Source: a virus
Taxonomy: Duplodnaviria; Heunggongvirae; Uroviricota; Caudoviricetes
Reading direction: 5' to 3' (one strand)
DNA: 39,249 bases
IMG/VR virus record: IMGVR_UViG_2861079508_000003
Span: 1-39,249 of that record
The notes beneath the pieces are model-generated. The model was not told the origin of the DNA, ran no database searches, and worked only from the letters and a program-made list of their open reading frames with translations. The position numbers were made by a program, and so were the translations under genes. This document shows, piece after piece, positions 8,758-38,816 of this stretch (positions are counted from its first letter, which is position 1; each line of letters opens with the position of its first letter).

Positions 8758-9186
8758 ATGACTCCGTGTTTGGAATTTGGCGGTTTAAAGGACAGCAAGG
8801 GTTATGGAAGGGTTTGGATTAATGGGAAAAAAGTATTTGCTCATAGATTTGCTTATTGTGTGGCAAAAGGGATCCAGCTTGAAGATATAGATGGCTTAGT
8901 AATTCGTCACGCATGTGACAATCCTTCTTGTATTTTACCTTCTCATTTATGTGCTGGGACAAGTCAGCAAAACGCAAATGACATGGTGGAGAGAAAAAGG
9001 CAGGCATTTGGAAGCAGGAATGGTAGGGCAAAATTAACTGAAGATGATGTAAGAAACATCATTAGTGAATATATACCAAGACACCCCTTATTCAACACAA
9101 GGGCATTATCAAAAAAATATGGAGTAACGCCAAATTATATAGCTGCTATTTGCAGAGGTGAAAAATGGAAGCACATAAAAAAATAA
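8758..9186 (+). CDS. HNH homing-endonuclease-like protein (HNH_3-type core plus C-terminal HTH; 142 aa)
   Basis: ..SKGYGRVWINGKKVFAHRFAY..VIRHACDNPSCILPSHLCAGTSQQNANDM.. fits the HNH_3 pattern; inserted between cII and the replication genes. Confidence 0.7.
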   Translation: MTPCLEFGGLKDSKGYGRVWINGKKVFAHRFAYCVAKGIQLEDIDGLVIRHACDNPSCILPSHLCAGTSQQNANDMVERKRQAFGSRNGRAKLTEDDVRNIISEYIPRHPLFNTRALSKKYGVTPNYIAAICRGEKWKHIKK

Positions 9187-12170: not shown

Positions 12171-12585
12171 TTTCATTCTGCACGAAACCAATAAATCACA
12201 ATTCTGGTTAGTTCTGAAACAAATCCTCTCTACTGGCAAACGCTGGCGAATCAAAATATCTGAGTACCGTGAGAAGCGTACATTGTCACAAAACAATCTG
12301 CTGTGGATGTGGAATGCAGAAATAGCCGCACAGTTATCTGCTGCTTCTGCTGAAAACTTCACGCCTGAAGAGGTTCATGAGTGGCTGAAAGATATATTTT
12401 GTCCGGCTAAAAGGGTGACGATTTTTAATATTACACGATGCGTTAAATCAACACGTCAGCTTGATATTGGAGATATGCACAAATATCTGACCGATATTGA
12501 CCAGTGGGCGCATCAGAAGGGATTACGACTAACCATTCCTGATAATTGCGAGTACCGGGATCTAAAGGAGAGGCAAGTAGAGTGA
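12160..12585 (+). CDS. ninB: NinB-like recombination protein (141 aa)
   Basis: ..RTLSQNNLLWMWNAEIA.. resembles the NinB/Orf motif (lambda ..RSLDQNRKLWACL..); first gene of the nin region. Confidence 0.7.
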   Translation: MMNDFILHETNKSQFWLVLKQILSTGKRWRIKISEYREKRTLSQNNLLWMWNAEIAAQLSAASAENFTPEEVHEWLKDIFCPAKRVTIFNITRCVKSTRQLDIGDMHKYLTDIDQWAHQKGLRLTIPDNCEYRDLKERQVE

Positions 12586-13109
12586 CTATCAAATCAAATA
12601 CGCCAGCGTCAGATAGGTATCGGCTTATTGAGGATTATCTGTATTTAGACGGAGATACAGTCAGATACAAAAAGGACTCGCTAAAACACCCCAACCACAG
12701 CCACCGGGCAGGAGATGAAATTAAAACATCGATAAATGGATCTGGGTATAGACAGGTGTGTTTTGCAGGCATTCAGATGTTTGTTCACGTAGTTGTTTTT
12801 GCGCTGCACAACAAAAGAATGCCATTGAAAAATATTGACCATATTAACGGAAACAGGCTGGACAATTCCCCAAAAAATCTTAGGGAGGCAGGCCGGATAG
12901 CAAACAGCCGAAATCAGAAAACTAAGTGCAATAGCCGTTCTGGAATAAAAAATGTTTTATGGAACAAGCAAAAAAATAAATGGGCCGTTCAAGTGCGCAC
13001 AGATTTTGGCCGGTTGTATTTTGGGCTCTATGAAGATCTTGAACTTGCTTGTTTGGTTGCCAGTGAGGCTATCAACAAATATCACGGACAATATGCGAAG
13101 GTTGTATGA
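12546..13109 (+). CDS. HNH homing-endonuclease-like protein with AP2-type DNA-binding domain (187 aa; may start at in-frame GTG 12582)
   Basis: ..KNIDHINGNRLDNSPKNLREA.. (HNH_3) followed by ..NKWAVQVRTDFGRLYFGLYEDLELA.. (AP2-like); GTG at 12582 has an AAGGAG RBS and overlaps the ninB stop. Confidence 0.7.
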   Translation: MRVPGSKGEASRVTIKSNTPASDRYRLIEDYLYLDGDTVRYKKDSLKHPNHSHRAGDEIKTSINGSGYRQVCFAGIQMFVHVVVFALHNKRMPLKNIDHINGNRLDNSPKNLREAGRIANSRNQKTKCNSRSGIKNVLWNKQKNKWAVQVRTDFGRLYFGLYEDLELACLVASEAINKYHGQYAKVV

Positions 13110-13815: not shown

Positions 13816-13982
13816 TTGACCCAAATCGAAGTTACGAACAAGAAAGCGTCGAGCGAGCTTTAACGTGCGCTAACTGCGGTCAGAAGCTGCATGTGCTGGA
13901 AGTTCACGTGTGCTCCGATTGCTGCGCAGAACTGATGAGCGATCCGAATAGCTCAATGTACGAGGAAGAAGACGATGAATGA
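13812..13982 (+). CDS. ninF: NinF protein (56 aa, GTG start), not in ORF track
   Basis: Manual translation [56 protein letters not shown] closely matches recalled lambda NinF; GTG overlaps the ninE stop. Confidence 0.7.
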
Positions 13983-14697
13983 GTTAATAAATGGCAATGC
14001 CATCAAAATGACAAGCATTGAAATCGCTGAGTTGGTTGGTAAGCGTCATGACAATGTGAAACGTACCATCGAAACGCTGGCTAAAAATGGTGTTATCCGG
14101 CTTCCTCAAATTGAGGATTGTGGAAGAATCAATGGGTTAGGCTTAAATCAAAGTTTTTGTGTGTATGTGTTCGAAGGCGAACAAGGTAAGCGAGATAGTA
14201 TTGTTGTTGTTGCCCAGTTGTCGCCAGAGTTCACCGCTCGTCTTGTTGACCGTTGGCGAGAGCTTGAAGAAACTGCGGTTAATATCCCCAAAACGTTACC
14301 GGAAGCGTTGCGCCTTGCTGCTGATCTTGCTGAGCAGAAAATGCAACTGGAAAACCAGCTCGCAATTGCCGCACCTAAAGTTGAGTTTGCCGATCGAGTT
14401 GGCGAGGCCAGCGGAATTTTGATTGGAAACTATGCAAAGGTTGTTGGAATTGGTCCAAACAAACTGTTTGCGTGGATGCGCGATCACAAAATCCTTATTG
14501 CTTCAGGTTCCCGGCGCAATGTGCCAATGCAGGAATATATGGATCGCGGCTATTTCACAGTGAAAGAAACAGCGGTCAACACAAATCACGGAATACAGAT
14601 ATCGTTCACCACAAAAATCACCGGGCGTGGTCAACAGTGGCTGACCAGAAAGCTGCTCGATAACGGAATGCTGAAAGTAACAGGGGAGGCTGCTTAA
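13975..14697 (+). CDS. Rha-family / KilA-C-type phage regulatory protein (putative antirepressor; 240 aa)
   Basis: N-terminus ([35 protein letters not shown]..) fits the Rha pattern; C-terminal half resembles KilA-C antirepressor domains. Family from memory. Confidence 0.6.
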   Translation: MNELINGNAIKMTSIEIAELVGKRHDNVKRTIETLAKNGVIRLPQIEDCGRINGLGLNQSFCVYVFEGEQGKRDSIVVVAQLSPEFTARLVDRWRELEETAVNIPKTLPEALRLAADLAEQKMQLENQLAIAAPKVEFADRVGEASGILIGNYAKVVGIGPNKLFAWMRDHKILIASGSRRNVPMQEYMDRGYFTVKETAVNTNHGIQISFTTKITGRGQQWLTRKLLDNGMLKVTGEAA

Positions 14698-16240: not shown

Positions 16241-16753
16241 ATGAAAGAAATAAAATTAACGCCAGAAATGGTGCTTTCTGTTGTTGATTACAATCCATCA
16301 TCAGGCGACTTTCACTGGAGATGGAGGCAGGGGAGAGAGAGGACCACTTTGACATGGAACTCTCGTTTTGCTTTCAAGAAATGCTCATCAATAAATTCTG
16401 ATGGGTATTTAATGATTATGATTAATGGTAAAGCATACCCTGCTCACAGACTGGCATGGTTGATTGTTTATGGCACCATGCCCGATGGTTTTATTGATCA
16501 CATCAACAGGGTAAGAACAGATAACCGGATATCAAATCTTCGTCTTGTCACTCATTCCGAAAATATGCAAAACAGGAAAATTCAGAAGAATAATAAATCT
16601 GGATACCGTGGCGTGTCTTGGGATGCTAAGTACGGGAAATGGAGAGCAAGAATTAATGCGTCTGGAAAGTGTATTAACCTTGGATACCATGACACTGCCG
16701 AACTTGCCGCTGCGGCTTTTGAGGCAGCCAGAATGAAATATCATACCGTTTAA
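16241..16753 (+). CDS. HNH homing-endonuclease-like protein with AP2-type domain (170 aa)
   Basis: ..AHRLAWLIVYGTMPDGFIDHINRVRTDNRISNLRLVTHSENMQNR.. (HNH_3) plus ..SGYRGVSWDAKYGKWRARI..GYHDTAELAAAAFEAA.. (AP2-like); inserted in the late-operon leader. Confidence 0.75.
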   Translation: MKEIKLTPEMVLSVVDYNPSSGDFHWRWRQGRERTTLTWNSRFAFKKCSSINSDGYLMIMINGKAYPAHRLAWLIVYGTMPDGFIDHINRVRTDNRISNLRLVTHSENMQNRKIQKNNKSGYRGVSWDAKYGKWRARINASGKCINLGYHDTAELAAAAFEAARMKYHTV

Positions 16754-16807: not shown

Positions 16808-16882
16808 GGGTCAGTCGTATAAAGGTCATTACGGAAGGCTGTTAACCTTCTTATCGTGGTTCGAGTCCACGCTGTCCCGCCA
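16808..16882 (+). tRNA. tRNA-Asn (anticodon GTT), putative
   Basis: Hand-folded cloverleaf: 7-bp acceptor stem (one U-U mismatch), D-arm with GG, anticodon loop CTGTTAA, T-arm CGTGG-TTCGAGT-CCACG, discriminator G and encoded CCA. Confidence 0.5.
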
Positions 16883-16887
16883 AATAT

Positions 16888-16963
16888 GCTGGTTTAGCTC
16901 CAATGGTAGAGCAGTCGCCTTGTAAGCGAATGGGTAGCGGTTCAAGTCCGTTAACCAGCACCA
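16888..16963 (+). tRNA. tRNA-Thr (anticodon TGT), putative
   Basis: Hand-folded cloverleaf: acceptor GCTGGTT/AACCAGC, D-stem GCTC/GAGC, anticodon loop CTTGTAA, T-arm AGCGG-TTCAAGT-CCGTT, discriminator A and encoded CCA; 76 nt. Confidence 0.6.
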
Positions 16964-31272: not shown

Positions 31273-32700
31273 ATGGCTACTTGGCAAGGAACAAACGGCG
31301 GATTGTTGGCTGGTATCGGCGGCGTCAACTCAAACGCTCCGAGCGTAAATGACATCGGCAATACGCTTCAGCTTATCAGGCAGAACAATGATATTGAGCG
31401 TTCAGGCGCTAACAATGTTGGGCTGACTGCTTTGCAAGGCCTTTCAGGTATTGCGGGGGTGTTTCAGCAGGAAAAGCAGGCTCAGCGGCAGAAAGAATTT
31501 CAGCAGGCATACGCTAATGCTTATGCGTCTGGTGATCGCGGTGCTTTGCGTCAGTTGGCTACTCAATATCCAGACCAGATTGAATCCGTTCGTAAAGGCA
31601 TGGGATTCATTGATGAAGAGCAGCGTAATTCTATCGGCACCTTAGCGGCTGGCGCACGCCTTGCGTCATCGTCTCCAGAAGCAATGCAATCATGGCTGCA
31701 AAACAACGCCAAGGAACTGGCGCGCGTCGGTGTTGACCCTAACAACGTTGCTCAGATGTATCAGCAGAATCCTTCAGGGTTTGGTGAGTTTGTTGATCAC
31801 CTTGGGATGGCTGCTCTCGGTCCGATTGACTACTTCAATGTTCAGGACAAGATGGCTGGTCGGGATATTGAGCGTGGCGAGTTGGCAGAGACGATTCGCA
31901 GCAATAAAGCTGGGGAAGGTTTACAGGCGCAAAGCATTGCTGTTAGCCGTGAAAACTCCCTGCGCACTGCTGGAGGTGCTGTTCCTGCATCTGTTAAAGA
32001 ATATCAATATTTCAACAGCCTGTCTCCAGAGCAACAAAAGACATATCTTCGTGTTCGAGGCCGTCCTGATGCTGGCGGGGAGAATGTTGTGCAACTGGCA
32101 GATGGTAGAACGGTAACGGTAGGCGGGAAACTTCACGGCGCTGGGGCTAATGCGTTCTACGAAGGCATCGATAACGAGGGGAATATGGTTCGCGTTCCTG
32201 CCAGTTCAATCGCTGCTCCTGCAACATCGTCTGCATCAGCACAAAACTATGCCATGAAGAAGGATATCGACGCGATCGCAAATGCAGACGCTTCTGCTCT
32301 CGATTTCATGACAGGAATGACCGGCGGCGCAGGTAACCCGGCAATTGGTGCTGATGTTCGCAGCCGATTAACAGGAAAAGAGCAGCGCCAGTTATATAAC
32401 TCAGCACAACGTATTCAGGGCAGAATGCAGAATCAGGGTGTGGCGGCAGCAAGGGACATGGGGGCCAGTGGTATTAACACCGTTGCAGAAGCGAAGATGT
32501 ATTTTCAGGGGATGCCGCAGGTTGACTATTCAAGCCCGGAGGCTATGCAGCAGTCGATTCGTGAGATTCAGGAATACACCAACAATTACAACCAACAATA
32601 TAACGTTAATGTTGGTAAATCTCAGCGGCAGCAATCTCAACCTGCACAGGTATCACAGCCAGCAGCCAGCAGTAACTTTTCTTCACTATGGGGTGATTAA
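31273..32700 (+). CDS. Ejection protein, P22 gp20 type (475 aa)
   Basis: Size (P22 gp20 about 471 aa) and synteny; Gly/Ala/Gln-rich composition typical of E-proteins. Confidence 0.7.
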
Positions 32701-34697
32701 TGGCTAAAGCATGGAAAGATGTTATCGCCTCTCCACAGTATCAGGCGTTAGCACCAGAACAAAAAGCGCAGGCTCAGGAGCAATACTTCAATGAAGTCGT
32801 TGCCCCGCAAGCCGGAGAAAATGCAGAGCAGGCTAAGCAAGCTTTCTATGCTGCCTATCCATTGCCATCTGTGCAGCCAGTGGATACACAGCAACCAGTA
32901 GCACAGCAACAACCGCAGCAAAGTGGATTTATGTCTGATCTTGGTGAAGCAGTGAAAGAGACTGGTCGCGGACTGGTGCAGGCTGGCGTGAACGTGGCAA
33001 ACATACCTGCATCAGTTGCAGATGCTGTAACAAGCGCGGCGGCTTGGGCTGGCGGTAAACTCGGCATTGGCGATGGTACATATCAACCAGCGCCACGAGT
33101 AACAACGCAGGGATTAGAGCAGGACTTTGGCCTTCAGCAAGGCGCGCTTACTCCACAAACGACAGAGGGAAGGGTATTTGCTGAAGCATTGCCTTACCTC
33201 ACTCCTGCTGGCGTTGAGAGAGCGGCAGCGCAGGCACCAACACTTGCTGGTCGAATTGCTCAGGGGGCAACTCGCCTTCTGGCAGAAAACGCAGTTGGAT
33301 CACTTGCTGCAAATAGTGCGAAAGATGATGCGGAAGCACTCGCCACCGATTTAGGCGTTGGTGTACTTACTGGCGGTGCTATTAACGCTGCCGGACGTGG
33401 ATTAGGTGCTGCTTATCGTGGCGTTCGTGGTGCTATCGCGCCAGAAGCGCAGCAGGCTATCAGATTTGCAGAGCGTGAAGGAGTTCCTCTGCACACCACA
33501 GACCTGTTACAACCAACTTCCCGCGTCGGAAAAATGGCGCAGACTACAGCAGAAAATATCCCTCTGGCTGGCACAAGCGGAATGAGAGCAACGCAACAGG
33601 AAGCGAGAAGCCAGTTGGTGCAGAGATTTGCTGATAAATTCGGTGAGTATGATCCAGCGGTTGTTATTGACAGCCTTAAAGCGAAAACATCAGGAATTCG
33701 TCGTGCCGCCGGTAATCGACTGGAGCAGGTTCAGAATGCTATGGCTGGAGTAAACATTCAGCCTGCTCGAGCAATTCAGCAGATTGATACAGAAATATCT
33801 AATCTGCAGAAGCTTGGTAAGGTCGCCGATAACGAGACTATTTCAAAACTTCAGTCCTATCGTGATGAGCTTGTTCGCAATGCTGGTCCTGATGGTCCGG
33901 TAAATCTGGATTTGAAGCAATTAAGCGACCTGCGCAGTCAGTTCAGAATGGACGTGAAGGGTGAGCGACCAGTGTTACCAAACCGTTCCGATGCTGCCAT
34001 TCAGCGCGTTTACAAGGCAATGACTGACGATATCAATGGTGCCATTGGTCAGAATCTTGGCAACGATACTCTCCGTAAATATCAGCAGGCCAATGCCGTC
34101 TATGCTGACGAAGCTGCGAAACTAAAGAATACCAGGCTGAAGAATGTTCTCATGAAAGGCGATCTGACGCCGGAAGTTGTCAACAACATGCTATTCAGCA
34201 AGAACAAATCGGAAATTAAGAATCTGTATAACTCAGTTGGTCGTGTTGGCAGGGCGCAAATGCGCAATGGCATCATTGGAAAGGCGATGGAGAAATCTGG
34301 CGGATCCCCTGACCAGTTCCTTCGACAGCTTAACATCCTGCAAAACCAGACTGGCATCACATTTAAGGGGCAGGACGCTGCTTATCTGAAAGGATTGAAA
34401 AACTACCTGCAATCCACGCAGCAGGCTGCAAAAGCGGCAGTAACAACACCAACAGGGCAGCAAACCATCCCGTTCATTATCGGATATGGGACAGCAATGA
34501 ACCCGGCGACAACTGGCGCAGCAGTAAGCTACGGACTTCTTACTCGCGCATATGAGAGCGAGCCATTCAGAAATGCAATGCTCCGAATGGCAAACACCCC
34601 ACGCGGATCAACAGCCTTTGAGAAAGCAATGCAGCAGGCACAAAAGGCAATTAACGCTCTGACGCAGGGGGCTAAGTCTGATGCGTTGTCAGAATAG
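32700..34697 (+). CDS. Ejection protein, P22 gp16 type (665 aa)
   Basis: Synteny and size (P22 gp16 about 609 aa); last gene of the rightward structural operon before converging minus-strand genes. Confidence 0.7.
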   Translation: MAKAWKDVIASPQYQALAPEQKAQAQEQYFNEVVAPQAGENAEQAKQAFYAAYPLPSVQPVDTQQPVAQQQPQQSGFMSDLGEAVKETGRGLVQAGVNVANIPASVADAVTSAAAWAGGKLGIGDGTYQPAPRVTTQGLEQDFGLQQGALTPQTTEGRVFAEALPYLTPAGVERAAAQAPTLAGRIAQGATRLLAENAVGSLAANSAKDDAEALATDLGVGVLTGGAINAAGRGLGAAYRGVRGAIAPEAQQAIRFAEREGVPLHTTDLLQPTSRVGKMAQTTAENIPLAGTSGMRATQQEARSQLVQRFADKFGEYDPAVVIDSLKAKTSGIRRAAGNRLEQVQNAMAGVNIQPARAIQQIDTEISNLQKLGKVADNETISKLQSYRDELVRNAGPDGPVNLDLKQLSDLRSQFRMDVKGERPVLPNRSDAAIQRVYKAMTDDINGAIGQNLGNDTLRKYQQANAVYADEAAKLKNTRLKNVLMKGDLTPEVVNNMLFSKNKSEIKNLYNSVGRVGRAQMRNGIIGKAMEKSGGSPDQFLRQLNILQNQTGITFKGQDAAYLKGLKNYLQSTQQAAKAAVTTPTGQQTIPFIIGYGTAMNPATTGAAVSYGLLTRAYESEPFRNAMLRMANTPRGSTAFEKAMQQAQKAINALTQGAKSDALSE

Positions 34698-34787: not shown

Positions 34788-35273
34788 TTATCTTATGTTA
34801 CTGCTACTGTTGCATGTGACTGTATTTCCAAACCCTGAATTGCAGTTTGTGTAAGTGTCAACGCGTGTTGGATAGGGTTGAGTTATAACAGGCTGTCTCG
34901 CTTTTTGCTCGATCGCTTGCATTGTGTTTACAGCCTGATAATTCAATAAAGCCTGCTGGAATGCTTGGCTTTGTGCTATTTGTTGGGCTTGTTCTTGGCT
35001 TTGTAATTGAACATAAAGATTCTGAAGCTCAAGTCTTGCCTGTGCGTCACTTATCTTGCCTTCATCGACACCTTGCCCGAGCATCTTTGCAGCAAGGACA
35101 TACAGCTTAGGTGTTGGTGCTGATGCCATGCGTGAGTCGTTCTTCACACTGGCATCAAGGCAATTAGCCATATCGCTAAGCTTTTGATAGCGTTGTTCGC
35201 AACTTGCTTGATAGTCACTTACTTTTGCGCATCCAACCAGCAGAAGCGGGATAATTAACAGTGATTTTTTCAT
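34788..35273 (-). CDS. Putative lipoprotein (signal peptide with lipobox LLVGC; about 161 aa from internal ATG)
   Basis: MKKSLLIIPLLLVGCAK.. is a textbook lipoprotein signal peptide; Gln-rich helical middle; lies downstream of mnt on the same strand, where P22 carries sieA. Confidence 0.55.
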   Translation of the reverse strand: MKKSLLIIPLLLVGCAKVSDYQASCEQRYQKLSDMANCLDASVKNDSRMASAPTPKLYVLAAKMLGQGVDEGKISDAQARLELQNLYVQLQSQEQAQQIAQSQAFQQALLNYQAVNTMQAIEQKARQPVITQPYPTRVDTYTNCNSGFGNTVTCNSSSNIR

Positions 35274-35343
35274 ATGGTTAACTCTCCTTAGTTTTTCACA
35301 GGATATCATGAAGGCTATGCCATTTTAGCCGGAAACTAGATTT

Positions 35344-35643
35344 CTATGTTTCCTTTTTATTATTGCTATACATGGTCTTAAGCGTATCAAAGACAATTTT
35401 CTTAACCATCTCAGATTGTTGTTCTGCCATACGCTCTGCATCGTCAATGTAAACAGATGCAGAGCTTTCTTTAGCCAATGATTCTTCAATCGCTGCAATT
35501 ATCTCTGAGTTCAGAGACCTGTTATTCATCTTCGCACGCTGTTTAATCTTCGCGTGGAGTTCATGCGGAAGTCTCAAGTGAAACTGCGCCTCGTCGTATT
35601 TGCTGTACATCCTTGATGCCTCACCAGTTGGGTGGAATGGCAT
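35344..35643 (-). CDS. mnt: Mnt-like ribbon-helix-helix repressor (Arc/MetJ family)
   Basis: ..FHLRLPHELHAKIKQRAKMNNRSLNSEIIAAIEESL.....DDAERMAEQQSEMVKKIVFDTLKTMY.. parallels recalled P22 Mnt; start could be Met1 or Met12 (35610). Confidence 0.7.
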   Translation of the reverse strand: MPFHPTGEASRMYSKYDEAQFHLRLPHELHAKIKQRAKMNNRSLNSEIIAAIEESLAKESSASVYIDDAERMAEQQSEMVKKIVFDTLKTMYSNNKKET

Positions 35644-35741
35644 CGTAACCTACTGGATAAATACTCAATAGTACCATTTCGGTATGCAATCACATCATGG
35701 TTGCATCATATCATTCGTCTGGAGCAATGAAATGTCAGATA

Positions 35742-36281
35742 TCACCTACCATGATTCTCATGATAACCATAGGTCTTTTCAGCCTCACGCCTTACAGCAA
35801 TTGCATCATCGAGACACTTAAAGTATCCGAGATTAATGCGCTTCCCTGCGTCGCTAATATATGCCACCCACTTTTTATGGGTCTTATGCCATGAAACACC
35901 TGCGCACCCAGATGTATTGTTTGTGTATTTAGATTTGTTTTTTAGGTTTTCACCGAGACTAACTAGACGCAGGTTGTCTATTGAATTATTTAACCCATTA
36001 CCATCTTTATGGTCAATTTGCATTCCTGAAGGGATTTCACCATAAAACATTTCCCATATTATCCTATGGGCGGCGTATATTTTATCTTGATACCTGATAA
36101 TTATATAAGATGTTTTCCTGTTCTTGTCCTTGAATATATGTCCTGCAGGCTTTTCTTTAGAGATATTGAACATTTTGGGTCTTGAAAGATATTGGTCACT
36201 CCAGTACAGGAGTCCATCGTCTTTTAATACGAATACTTCGTTCCAGTTCATGTTAACCACCTTTAAATAAAGTTCACTCAT
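35742..36281 (-). CDS. HNH homing-endonuclease-like protein with AP2-type domain (179 aa)
   Basis: ..[47 protein letters not shown].. (HNH_3) plus ..[36 protein letters not shown] (AP2-like); occupies the position of arc/ant in P22. Confidence 0.7.
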
Positions 36282-36338
36282 TATACAAAAAACATGCTAG
36301 CAATGAATATTGCTTGCTTAACATATAGAGAAATTAAA

Positions 36339-38816
36339 ATGACAGATTCAATAAATGCCAATGTTGTAGTCAGCATGCCTTCGCAACTCTTCACTATGGC
36401 TCGTTCTTTTAAAGCCGTAGCTAATGGAAAGATTTATATCGGTAAAATTGACACTGACCCAGTAAATCCTGAAAACCAGATTCAGGTTTATGTGGAGAAT
36501 GAAGACGGTTCTCACGTTCCTGTTTCGCAGCCAATCATCATTAACGCTGCTGGATATCCGGTATATAACGGACAGATTGCCAAGTTCGTAACTGTGCAAG
36601 GCCATTCTATGGCTGTATACGATGCGTATGGTGCGCAGCAGTTCTATTTTCCTAATGTGCTGAAGTATGACCCCGATCAGCTACGGCCGCAATTAGAAGA
36701 TCCAGATGGCGCTAAAAAATATCCTGAGTTGCAGATGGCACGATGGAGAGATTGTGGAGATGTTAGAGGGTGGGGAGCAAAAATAGATGGGGTAACAGAT
36801 GATTCAGATGCTTTTATTAAAGCTTTAAACTCTGGAAGGTCGGTTATAACAATTCCTGAAGGAATATGCATCATCAAGAAGAATATTAACATTCCTGAGG
36901 GGTGTTCACTGGTTGGATCTGGCATTGATTATTGGGATACATATAGACCAGCGCCTGAAAGATTATTAAAAAGTTGGAGCAAAGGAACCCATCTTGTATT
37001 TACTGGTGATGGAGAAAAAAACAAATATTTTTTTAACATCTCTAATGAAAGACCGGTTAAAATTGTTGAAGGGATATCTTGTAAGTTCACTGAGTTTACG
37101 AATGAAGATTCTGTAGGTGTTACTCCTGCTACACCAAAAGCCATGAGCGTAGCTGTTAGTATCAACAGGGCATCACAGTTACGCAATCTGAGAATAATGG
37201 TAAGTAAAAATGGTATTGAAGGATACAATAACCCTGATTCTTATTCATTGGGTGATAACTGGGATATAGGGTTGCATGTATACGATAGCTGTGATTCAGT
37301 TATTGATAACGTACAGATTGTCGGATATTGGAGGGTAAAAGGACTACTACTGACAGAAAATGACGGGAGCCTTTCAATGAAGGGAAATCCTGAAAAAACG
37401 CACTTTAATAACGTTTATGTCCAGTCAGGAATCGCGATAAGGAATAGCCCTCAGATTGATCTTGTAAGTAATACTGAAAGCTCAGTGACATTTAAACATA
37501 AAAAGTCGATGAGAATAACTTCAGTTAAACAGTTTAAAATTGCTGGCAGTGAATCAGTATATACGTATTCAGATGCATCATTTGATGGAACTAACATCAC
37601 ACTATCTGGTATTTCTCCTGAAATACAAGGTACAATAAGTGTAATAAGGTTTCCGTCAATTGGTAATAATTTTAGCGGGACTGTTTTTGAGAATACAGTA
37701 GCCACTACTCTTGATCATACATCAGGTAAGCCATCAGAATACTTTGGCCTTCCTGCATCCTTTGCATTAGAGGTTGATGGTTTCCCTGTTCGTAATTTAA
37801 GGTTTGATAAATTCAAAGCTCAAACAACATTTGATAAAGGAAATTGCATTTTTGGTGATTGCCGTGATGTTAAAATAACATCATCTGAGTTTGAAAATGG
37901 AATTATGATTGCGTATAACCTGACCGAGACTCAGGGTTATACAGGAAATCTTAGATTTTTTGCTTCTGATCTTCAGAGCAGCGTTAACACAAGTGAGTTT
38001 AAACCAAGAGACGCATTTGTAGACAATAGACAAATAAAAACGGAGTTTACTGATGGTTCGTTCATCATAAAGAACTGGAGGCCTACAGATACAAAAATAC
38101 AATGGTCGTCTGGAGTAGATGCTATTGTTCTTAGAGAGTCACCTGACGAACAATCAAACGGAAATATTTCCGGGCATCACATTGATGGTAAAAGATGGAT
38201 TTATGTTAGTGGATATAACAAAGATATAAATATTTCATCAAGAAACTTAAGCGTAAAAAACCATGGTGATGACTCTGCAGTTATTAATATATTCGGCGAC
38301 TCTGGAAATATTGCCATTAAAGGTAATTTTTCACCAATTATTGATAACAGCAAATCTCTTGGTGCACCATCATTTAGATGGGCTCAGATTTATTCTGCAT
38401 CCGGGACTATAAGCACATCAGATGAAACACTTAAAACAATATATGACATTACTCAGGCAGAGCGTGATGCTGCGCTGGAAATAAAGGGAATTATATGCAA
38501 GTTCAGGTTTAATGAGTCGATTAATTTTAAAGGATTGGAGTTATCAAGGTATCATTTTGGAGTTGGCGCTCAAACCGTAGGAGATATTCTTAGAAAGCAT
38601 GGTTTAAATCCTGAGCAATATGCTTTTTGGTGTTACGATGAATGGCCAGACGTATGGGATGAAGAGGTGATAACTGAAGAGAGCACAGATCCTGATACAG
38701 GTGAGAAAATTTATTCTCAATATAAAACAGGAAATATGATTCTTGTAAAAAAAGCAGGTGGACGCTACGGAATTCGTTATGACGAATTGGCTATGTTTAT
38801 ATTAATGGCAATGTAG
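36339..38816 (+). CDS. Tailspike protein: P22-type N-terminal head-binding domain, divergent receptor-binding domain, C-terminal intramolecular-chaperone-like domain
   Basis: From ATG at 36339: [60 protein letters not shown].. matches recalled P22 gp9 for about 115 aa; the rest differs; C-terminus (..[29 protein letters not shown]..) resembles auto-cleaving chaperone domains. Confidence 0.8.

Follow-up and report, generated by a model that had tools for sequence, protein, structure and literature searches.

A lipoprotein gene in the sieA slot, an ant-less mnt and a probable homing-endonuclease insertion in the tailspike gene of a P22-like Escherichia coli prophage

Organization of the gene 16–tailspike interval

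In the window analyzed here, the whole stretch of 39,249 nucleotides, the interval between gene 16 and the tailspike gene consists of three minus-strand genes, which encode a lipoprotein, an Mnt-family repressor and an HNH endonuclease (Table 1). The lipoprotein gene takes the place of sieA behind a sieA-type leader, mnt is retained with arc, sar and ant gone, and the HNH gene belongs to a separate insertion in the 5' end of the tailspike gene. The anatomy is almost certainly as we describe it. Our explanation as a whole, in which the interval is the variable "ant moron" of a P22-like prophage made of three independent modules with the roles proposed below, is in our view moderately probable. 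Judged from its sequence, the window is a P22-like (Lederbergvirus) E. coli prophage, since a 1.8-kb query over the interval matches the E. coli M160133 chromosome at 100% identity, the tailspike has a P22-type head-binding domain, and a homologue of gp16 (34% identical to the P22 protein) is encoded. The likely starts of the lipoprotein (35273, behind AAGGAG), Mnt (35610) and HNH (36251) genes are the RefSeq-annotated ones and not those of the longest ORFs.

The P22 proteins Arc, Ant, SieA and Rha were used as tblastn queries against the whole window and gave nothing significant. The SieA query was the type A protein, not type B or C, and had no match at E <= 1; the interval is filled by other genes. 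A search of the window with Rfam matched two tRNAs and no other family. By these searches, mnt is the only one of the four immI genes mnt, arc, sar and ant that is present. An earlier note on this DNA had described a remodeled immI region with an Mnt-like gene, a lipoprotein gene and an HNH gene, and had stated that arc and ant are missing between mnt and the tailspike gene; both descriptions agree with our results. Its statement that Mnt has no antirepressor is correct for the interval but not for the prophage as a whole, since an ORF elsewhere in the window carries Rha and ANT/KilAC domains. The ant moron is known to be highly variable, and ten types have been distinguished among sixteen genomes, with mnt-only forms and its complete absence counted among them (PMC2629481, PMC8022706, PMC7484078), so the remodeling itself is ordinary.

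Table 1. Positions of the genes and sequence elements discussed in the text
Feature	Position	Strand	Remarks
Antirepressor-family ORF	13975-14697		Rha and ANT/KilAC domains
Gene-16-type DNA-ejection protein	32700-34697	+	Bounds the variable region on the left; phrog_770 DNA transfer protein (E 5.7e-239)
Lipoprotein gene in the sieA slot	34788-35273	-	161 aa, 486 bp; signal peptide with LVGC lipobox; residue +2 Ala; Cys at four other positions
sieA-type leader	35274-35312	-	TG-extended -10-like TGATATCCT (35300-35308), putative promoter; Shine-Dalgarno AAGGAG (35284-35289)
Mnt-family ribbon-helix-helix repressor	35344-35610	-	88 aa; PF03869, PF11423; RefSeq start
Weak Pant-like remnant	35637-35665	+	ATGGCA-17-AATACT, aimed at the tailspike gene; relaxed scan, 8/12 matches; putative
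Pmnt-like promoter	35642-35668	-	TTGAGT (35668-35663), 15-nt spacer, TACGAT (35647-35642); positional homologue of P22 Pmnt; putative function
Candidate Mnt operator	35671-35685	.	GTACCATTTCGGTAT; arms TACC/GGTA; position homologous to P22 Omnt, adjoining the common CTCAATAG
23-bp palindrome	35684-35706	.	ATGCAATCA-CATCA-TGGTTGCAT; absent from 2/3 contexts with the same Mnt allele
Original tailspike start stub	35732-35746	+	ATG TCA GAT ATC ACC; GGAG ribosome-binding site 35721-35724; same as the uninterrupted EC01307 start
HNH_3 (+AP2-like) endonuclease	35742-36251	-	169 aa; stop codon inside the old tailspike stub
Free-standing homing-endonuclease cassette	35747-36356	.	610 bp; clean insertion relative to contig L005; GC 0.36
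-10 element upstream of the HNH gene	36280-36285	-	Perfect TATAAT, in TTCATT-17-TATAAT; putative promoter
Tailspike gene	36339-38816	+	PF09008 Head_binding, E 1.4e-65; RefSeq start
Empty site, candidate for HNH cleavage			ATGTCAGATATCACC/GCAAATGTTGTGG, also given as ATGTCAGATATCACC/GCAAATGTTGTGGTAAGC

The lipoprotein gene replaces sieA

We compared 85 related loci from viral and genome collections, and the lipoprotein gene always adjoins gene 16, whatever else is present. One contig (L084) matches P22 at 93% identity over ant, arc, mnt, orf59a and the annotated PsieA, as far as the Shine-Dalgarno sequence, beyond which the lipoprotein ORF stands in place of sieA. In an alignment with the P22 sieA upstream region, the leader of the window has TCATGrTATCCTG...AAAACTAAGGAG in common. 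The exact swap in L084 and the common leader indicate that the lipoprotein gene is an alternative cargo of the sieA expression slot. The earlier note had placed the lipoprotein where an exclusion gene would be expected, and the swap at the Shine-Dalgarno sequence, together with the same leader in the window, bears this out. The gene thus has the position of a SieA-family gene, between gene 16 and mnt behind PsieA, but its product has no homology to SieA by tblastn with the P22 type A protein. The two proteins have the same slot, leader and orientation and nearly the same size (161 aa, against 164 aa for P22 SieA), whereas the lipoprotein lacks sequence similarity to SieA and is distinguished by a lipoprotein signal and a sorting residue of the outer-membrane type.

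The signal can be read directly from the sequence, as MKK followed by SLLIIPLLLV and the lipobox LVG/C15. As in bacterial lipoproteins, there is a charged n-region, a hydrophobic core and the motif [LVI][ASTVI][GAS]C with its cysteine at position 15-35. In an alignment of 42 homologues, C15 never varies, nor do C25 and C38 of the N-terminal domain or the C-terminal C154, and conservation of G14 is at least 90%; in a wider alignment, C144 is likewise at least 90% conserved. The AF2 model has a confident, helical N-terminal domain. Under the +2 rule for Enterobacterales lipoproteins, Ala at +2 predicts sorting to the outer membrane. We accordingly expect export of the protein, lipid attachment at Cys15 and transfer to the outer membrane, as residue +2 is Ala and not Asp.

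A real gene is indicated by the median dN/dS of 0.05 (54 nucleotide alleles), which points to strong purifying selection. The protein matches phrog_6067, a family annotated as function unknown, from end to end (E 1.6e-110), and scans with Pfam, NCBIfam and PADLOC profiles gave no family match. Its homologues form about 94 clusters at 90% identity, in which every named source organism belongs to the Enterobacterales, and the clusters are labeled hypothetical protein or lipoprotein with the single exception of an apparently mis-assigned GspK name. A GspK identity was rejected; the match is of low complexity and below threshold (18.9 bits against a cut-off of 130). Among 5426 complete E. coli genomes, 186 have the gene, including O104:H4, and it is common in clinical and animal isolates. 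The literature that we searched does not mention WP_000749291 or describe a lipoprotein in the sieA slot.

Possible function of the lipoprotein

Expression of the lipoprotein in the lysogen is probable and would start from the extended -10 element, come from Pmnt by read-through, or use both routes. Read-through is proposed on the ground that the spacer between mnt and the lipoprotein gene holds no intrinsic terminator. The region 3' of the lipoprotein gene was also folded, and neither significant structure nor a terminator was found there. We propose that the protein would be an envelope factor of the prophage, most likely one that excludes superinfecting phages at the outer-membrane or periplasmic stage. 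The exclusion role is drawn solely from the position of the gene, and we put it forward tentatively. It is possible, though we hold this more specific proposal with still less confidence, that the family is a new outer-membrane-anchored superinfection exclusion of P22-like prophages, alternative to the inner-membrane SieA, and that it would act periplasmically by blocking the assembly of the ejection-protein channel or the engagement of needle and porin. An identical lipoprotein allele occurs with gp16 C-termini that are 99% and only 34% identical to that of the window, so the lipoprotein does not co-vary with the ejection proteins, which are the targets of SieA.

A host-fitness or lysogenic-conversion factor, for example in serum resistance or envelope robustness as with lambda Bor, is a rather unlikely alternative to exclusion but has several observations in its favor. 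The lipoprotein resembles no defence or exclusion family, and its fold comparison gave no match, including none to known exclusion or defence proteins. A deep profile search of the full library placed its N-terminal domain in a wider family of 243 clusters at 50% identity, all unnamed, and the distant relatives in this domain include members in ordinary, non-prophage chromosomal neighborhoods. Membership of this family is therefore no evidence of an anti-phage role. The contig of one distant relative also encodes a terminase small subunit. Scanning 20 distant members with Pfam and NCBIfam gave no common family, and a second, word-indexed search added no named relatives. The frequency of the gene in clinical and animal E. 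coli would likewise suit a benefit to the host. Against this, the lipoprotein ORF exactly replaces sieA behind PsieA, and within P22-like prophages, across many genera, it is limited to one slot.

Small lipoproteins such as Cor (phi80/N15), Llp (T5) and Ltp (TP-J34), which exclude phages, and lambda Bor are prophage-encoded, made in the lysogen and act at the envelope. None of these proteins was matched by the lipoprotein of the window in the Pfam scan or the fold comparison. PMC10883804 has Cor of phi80/N15 and Ltp among its references, and PMC7067206 has Bor.

Mnt and its candidate operator

The product of mnt has both domains of its family. The N-terminal domain is recognized by PF03869 Arc (E 1.7e-15; 57 bits, cut-off 20.4) and the C-terminal tetramerization helix by PF11423 Repressor_Mnt (E 7.6e-14; 51.6 bits, cut-off 20.9), while PADLOC gave no family match. 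Identity to P22 Mnt is 49% over 76 aa. P22-type Mnt represses an adjacent antirepressor gene; here, neither arc nor ant separates mnt from the tailspike gene, and no homologue of P22 Ant was found in the window. The base contacts of P22 Mnt, which we take from Sauer-laboratory work to be Arg2, His6, Asn8 and Arg10, are changed at three of the four positions. These altered contact residues fit a different operator.

In P22-type systems Mnt acts at a palindrome that overlaps the divergent Pant and Pmnt, and a candidate for the operator of the window lies at the position homologous to P22 Omnt. In the window its arms are only 4 bp, and a match so short is not significant by count alone. At the same place, contig L017 has the perfect palindrome CATACC-GAAAT-GGTATG, and a Tatumella locus whose Mnt has a similar recognition strand (QFHL) has TACGGAAACTGTA. 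Three upstream contexts were found with the Mnt allele of the window; they have the block from the candidate operator to the mnt start in common and diverge just upstream of it. No other copy of the operator within 3 mismatches occurs anywhere in the window, and none lies near the lipoprotein leader.

The promoter and terminator scans gave matches no more frequent than in shuffled sequence, and the promoter calls are accordingly based on homology to P22 and not on the scan. The Pmnt-like element is present in all contexts compared, although its 15-nt spacer is suboptimal. The Pmnt/Pant geometry of P22 is kept to within 2 bp, and the Pant-like hexamers are weak. With its altered contact residues, own operator and own promoter, Mnt would be a functional repressor. 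With arc, sar and ant lost, its remaining role is probably limited to autoregulation and to silencing of the weak Pant remnant, which now faces the tailspike gene. We therefore regard the ant-less mnt as a maintained module, whose most likely role is autoregulation and silencing of this remnant.

Decay is the obvious alternative explanation for an mnt that has lost arc, sar and ant, and the possibility of a remnant has been raised for phage L (PMC8022706). We consider it very improbable that mnt is a functionless leftover of a deleted immI. The ORF is intact with both domains, its dN/dS is 0.11 over 32 alleles, and the operator/promoter block is conserved while the flanks recombine. It is about equally improbable that Mnt controls the distant Rha+KilAC gene in trans. 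The presence of that gene in the same prophage would allow such control, but the window contains no second candidate operator within 3 mismatches, and the gene lies in the nin region, where, from the gene order, it is probably transcribed with the early-right genes. We rejected this distant target on the uniqueness of the candidate operator in the window.

The earlier note had suggested that an Mnt with no antirepressor may regulate its own promoter or the lipoprotein. The first part is plausible, given a candidate operator at the Omnt position that is conserved in three contexts. The second part fares less well. The mnt and lipoprotein genes are on the same strand with 70 bp between them, and the lack of an intrinsic terminator in this spacer makes co-transcription possible; mnt with the lipoprotein is also the commonest arrangement among the loci. 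These features would suit a regulated pair in which control of the lipoprotein is the remaining role of Mnt. However, Morganella has the lipoprotein gene without any mnt, the lipoprotein of L084 lies in a complete immI behind PsieA with orf59a separating it from mnt, the lipoprotein is found with at least six unrelated Mnt alleles, and there is no operator copy near its leader. A regulated pair is, on this evidence, improbable. In 200 shuffles of the spacer, none folded as well as the native sequence (z = -3.3). A complete immI stands beside the lipoprotein in 17 of the 85 loci, and in Pectobacterium the lipoprotein occurs with Arc-family genes and a Bro-N antirepressor. The Mnt allele of the window was never seen with ant in the loci compared. 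As far as the comparison of loci can tell, Mnt is not tied to the lipoprotein.

A probable homing-endonuclease cassette in the tailspike gene

The third gene encodes a protein with an HNH_3 domain (PF13392, E 2.3e-20), which also matches the PADLOC HEase profile (E 5.1e-11). Its AP2 match has 23.1 bits and is below the Pfam cut-off of 33.3, whereas a 43%-identical paralogue at 16241 is above it with 35.1 bits. The best phage relatives of the protein are less than 50% identical and are annotated as homing endonucleases.

The prophage of E. coli EC01307 is otherwise identical and lacks the 610-bp cassette, so that the insertion point can be placed after codon 5 of the tailspike gene, with the downstream junction at 36356/36357. 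At its tailspike-side end the cassette supplies a new start, ATG ACA GAT TCA ATA AAT, which restores the reading frame, and the first six codons of the tailspike (MTDSIN) now come from the cassette. The tailspike gene remains intact because of this replacement translation start. Three synonymous differences fall within the first 15 nt past the junction in the sequence comparison. The cassette would thus have entered after codon 5, bringing its own promoter as well as the replacement start. It occurs in 15 of 5426 genomes, always at full length and always adjoining the tailspike gene, whether or not the lipoprotein gene is present. In two other contexts the identical junction is occupied by a second HNH lineage (35% identical), with mnt on its other side in one of them and ant in the other. 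From the matching junctions, we interpret these insertions as the signature of site-specific homing into the conserved 5' end of the tailspike gene and not of a replacement of arc and ant.

The earlier note had the HNH gene filling the space of arc and ant, and this does not hold. The arc/ant-less form without the HNH gene is the common one, and the HNH gene is a separate 610-bp insertion in the 5' end of the tailspike gene. From the HNH-less prophages of the same layout and the clean insertion into the tailspike gene, we rejected a replacement of arc and ant by HNH.

Comparison with known systems and implications

The interval resembles P22 immI (sieA-orf59a-mnt-arc-sar-ant, between genes 16 and 9) in its location, strand layout, mnt, the geometry of the candidate Pmnt, Pant and Omnt, and sieA leader. 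It differs in having no arc, sar, ant, orf59a or sieA, in the lipoprotein that replaces sieA, and in the recognition residues of Mnt and the operator. The loss of arc and ant with retention of mnt is known from phages L, ST64T and ST104 (PMC8022706, PMC2629481), whose mnt-only morons likewise have Mnt beside one gene of unknown function. In the window, by contrast, the partner is a lipoprotein of a widespread family, and the Mnt allele is under purifying selection with a conserved candidate operator. Lytic coliphages and Salmonella phages carry free-standing HNH(+AP2) homing endonucleases, which the cassette resembles in its HNH_3 domain, putative AP2-like C-terminus, low GC and presence/absence polymorphism at a fixed site, but it lies in a temperate P22-like prophage, inside the first codons of a structural gene, and carries a substitute start codon. 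Compared with the literature that we found, what appears to be new is the widespread use of the sieA expression slot by a lipoprotein gene in place of sieA, the ant-less mnt under selection with a conserved candidate operator, and the homing-endonuclease insertion that re-creates the tailspike start.

These results bear on a question left open for phage L, since they suggest that mnt without ant can be a maintained, functional module and not debris. The cassette indicates that a homing endonuclease can enter an essential structural gene with neither an intron nor an intein by carrying a new start codon. SieA blocks injection at the inner membrane (PMC10883804), and should the lipoprotein exclude phages, the slot of SieA would harbor a second mechanism. 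Such an exclusion system would confer protection on about 3% of E. coli, O104:H4 among them, as well as on many other Enterobacterales, and the prevalence of the lipoprotein gene in complete E. coli genomes may therefore bear on host range in phage therapy.

The tailspike junction and the mnt flanks

In the HNH cassette inserted into the tailspike gene, a palindrome lies between the −10 element of the HNH gene and the new tailspike start; reading along the minus strand, a run of T residues comes after it, immediately ahead of the HNH TATAAT. The short reading frame opened by the orphaned tailspike ribosome-binding site and ATG extends in antisense into the HNH coding sequence at its 3' end, and its product, if translated, would have no tailspike function.

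Table. Features of the window and of related loci
Feature	Location	Strand	Remarks
Palindrome AGCAAT-GAAT-ATTGCT	36299-36318		in HNH cassette
29-codon ORF	35732-35821	+	orphaned tailspike RBS and ATG
23-bp palindrome ATGCAATCA-CATCA-TGGTTGCAT	35684-35706
Two-hairpin RNA fold, mnt-lipoprotein spacer	35274-35360	−	folding against shuffles
Tailspike receptor-binding part	36801-38816	+
HNH_3 endonuclease gene	8758-9186	+
HNH_3 endonuclease gene	12546-13109	+
HNH_3 endonuclease gene	16241-16753	+
tRNA-Asn (GTT) gene	16808-16882	+
tRNA-Thr (TGT) gene	16888-16963	+
Second HNH lineage	L031 2900-3700
Second HNH lineage	L057 1180-1960
Homologue, lipoprotein N-terminal domain	L104 6001-6426		uvrC/bio genes nearby
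Homologue, lipoprotein N-terminal domain	L106 4954-5472		thioredoxin/Lon-domain genes nearby
Rha and ANT/KilAC protein, 240 aa	13975-14697	+	PF09669 (Rha), PF03374 (ANT/KilAC)

The 23-bp palindrome upstream of mnt has the candidate Mnt operator on one side and the old ribosome-binding site of the tailspike gene on the other; it occurs once in the window and is missing from two other contexts carrying the same Mnt allele. The RNA of the mnt-lipoprotein spacer folds significantly better than shuffled sequences (z = −3.27), with the first hairpin covering the mnt stop codon; the fold does not amount to a canonical terminator.

Two other loci (L031 and L057) carry a second HNH lineage, 35% identical to the HNH protein of the cassette. 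It is inserted at exactly the tailspike junction that the cassette occupies, ATGTCAGATATCACC/TAC, and brings its own substitute tailspike start (MPEQLY-NVVV...). The left neighbour of the L057 insertion is ant. The receptor-binding part of the window's tailspike has a low GC content (0.36), and, unlike the P22 endorhamnosidase, this tailspike ends in an endosialidase-chaperone-like Peptidase_S74 domain, matched slightly under the Pfam cut-off.

Related genes elsewhere

The three further HNH_3 proteins of the prophage are 29-43% identical to that of the cassette, and four HNH_3 genes in one temperate P22-like genome seem unusual. The two tRNA genes are flanked by the one of the three at 16241 and the holin gene; this Q-HNH-tRNA-holin order appears in only 37 of the 1483 genomes sharing part of the region. 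Distant homologues of the lipoprotein N-terminal domain (25-35% identity; L104 and L106) have chromosomal, non-prophage neighbourhoods; the family to which they belong is unnamed and comprises about 243 clusters.

The Rha and ANT/KilAC gene is located in the nin region, and its product matches the anti-repressor Ant family phrog_63 (E = 1.5e-95). The prophage therefore does encode an antirepressor-family protein, outside immI.
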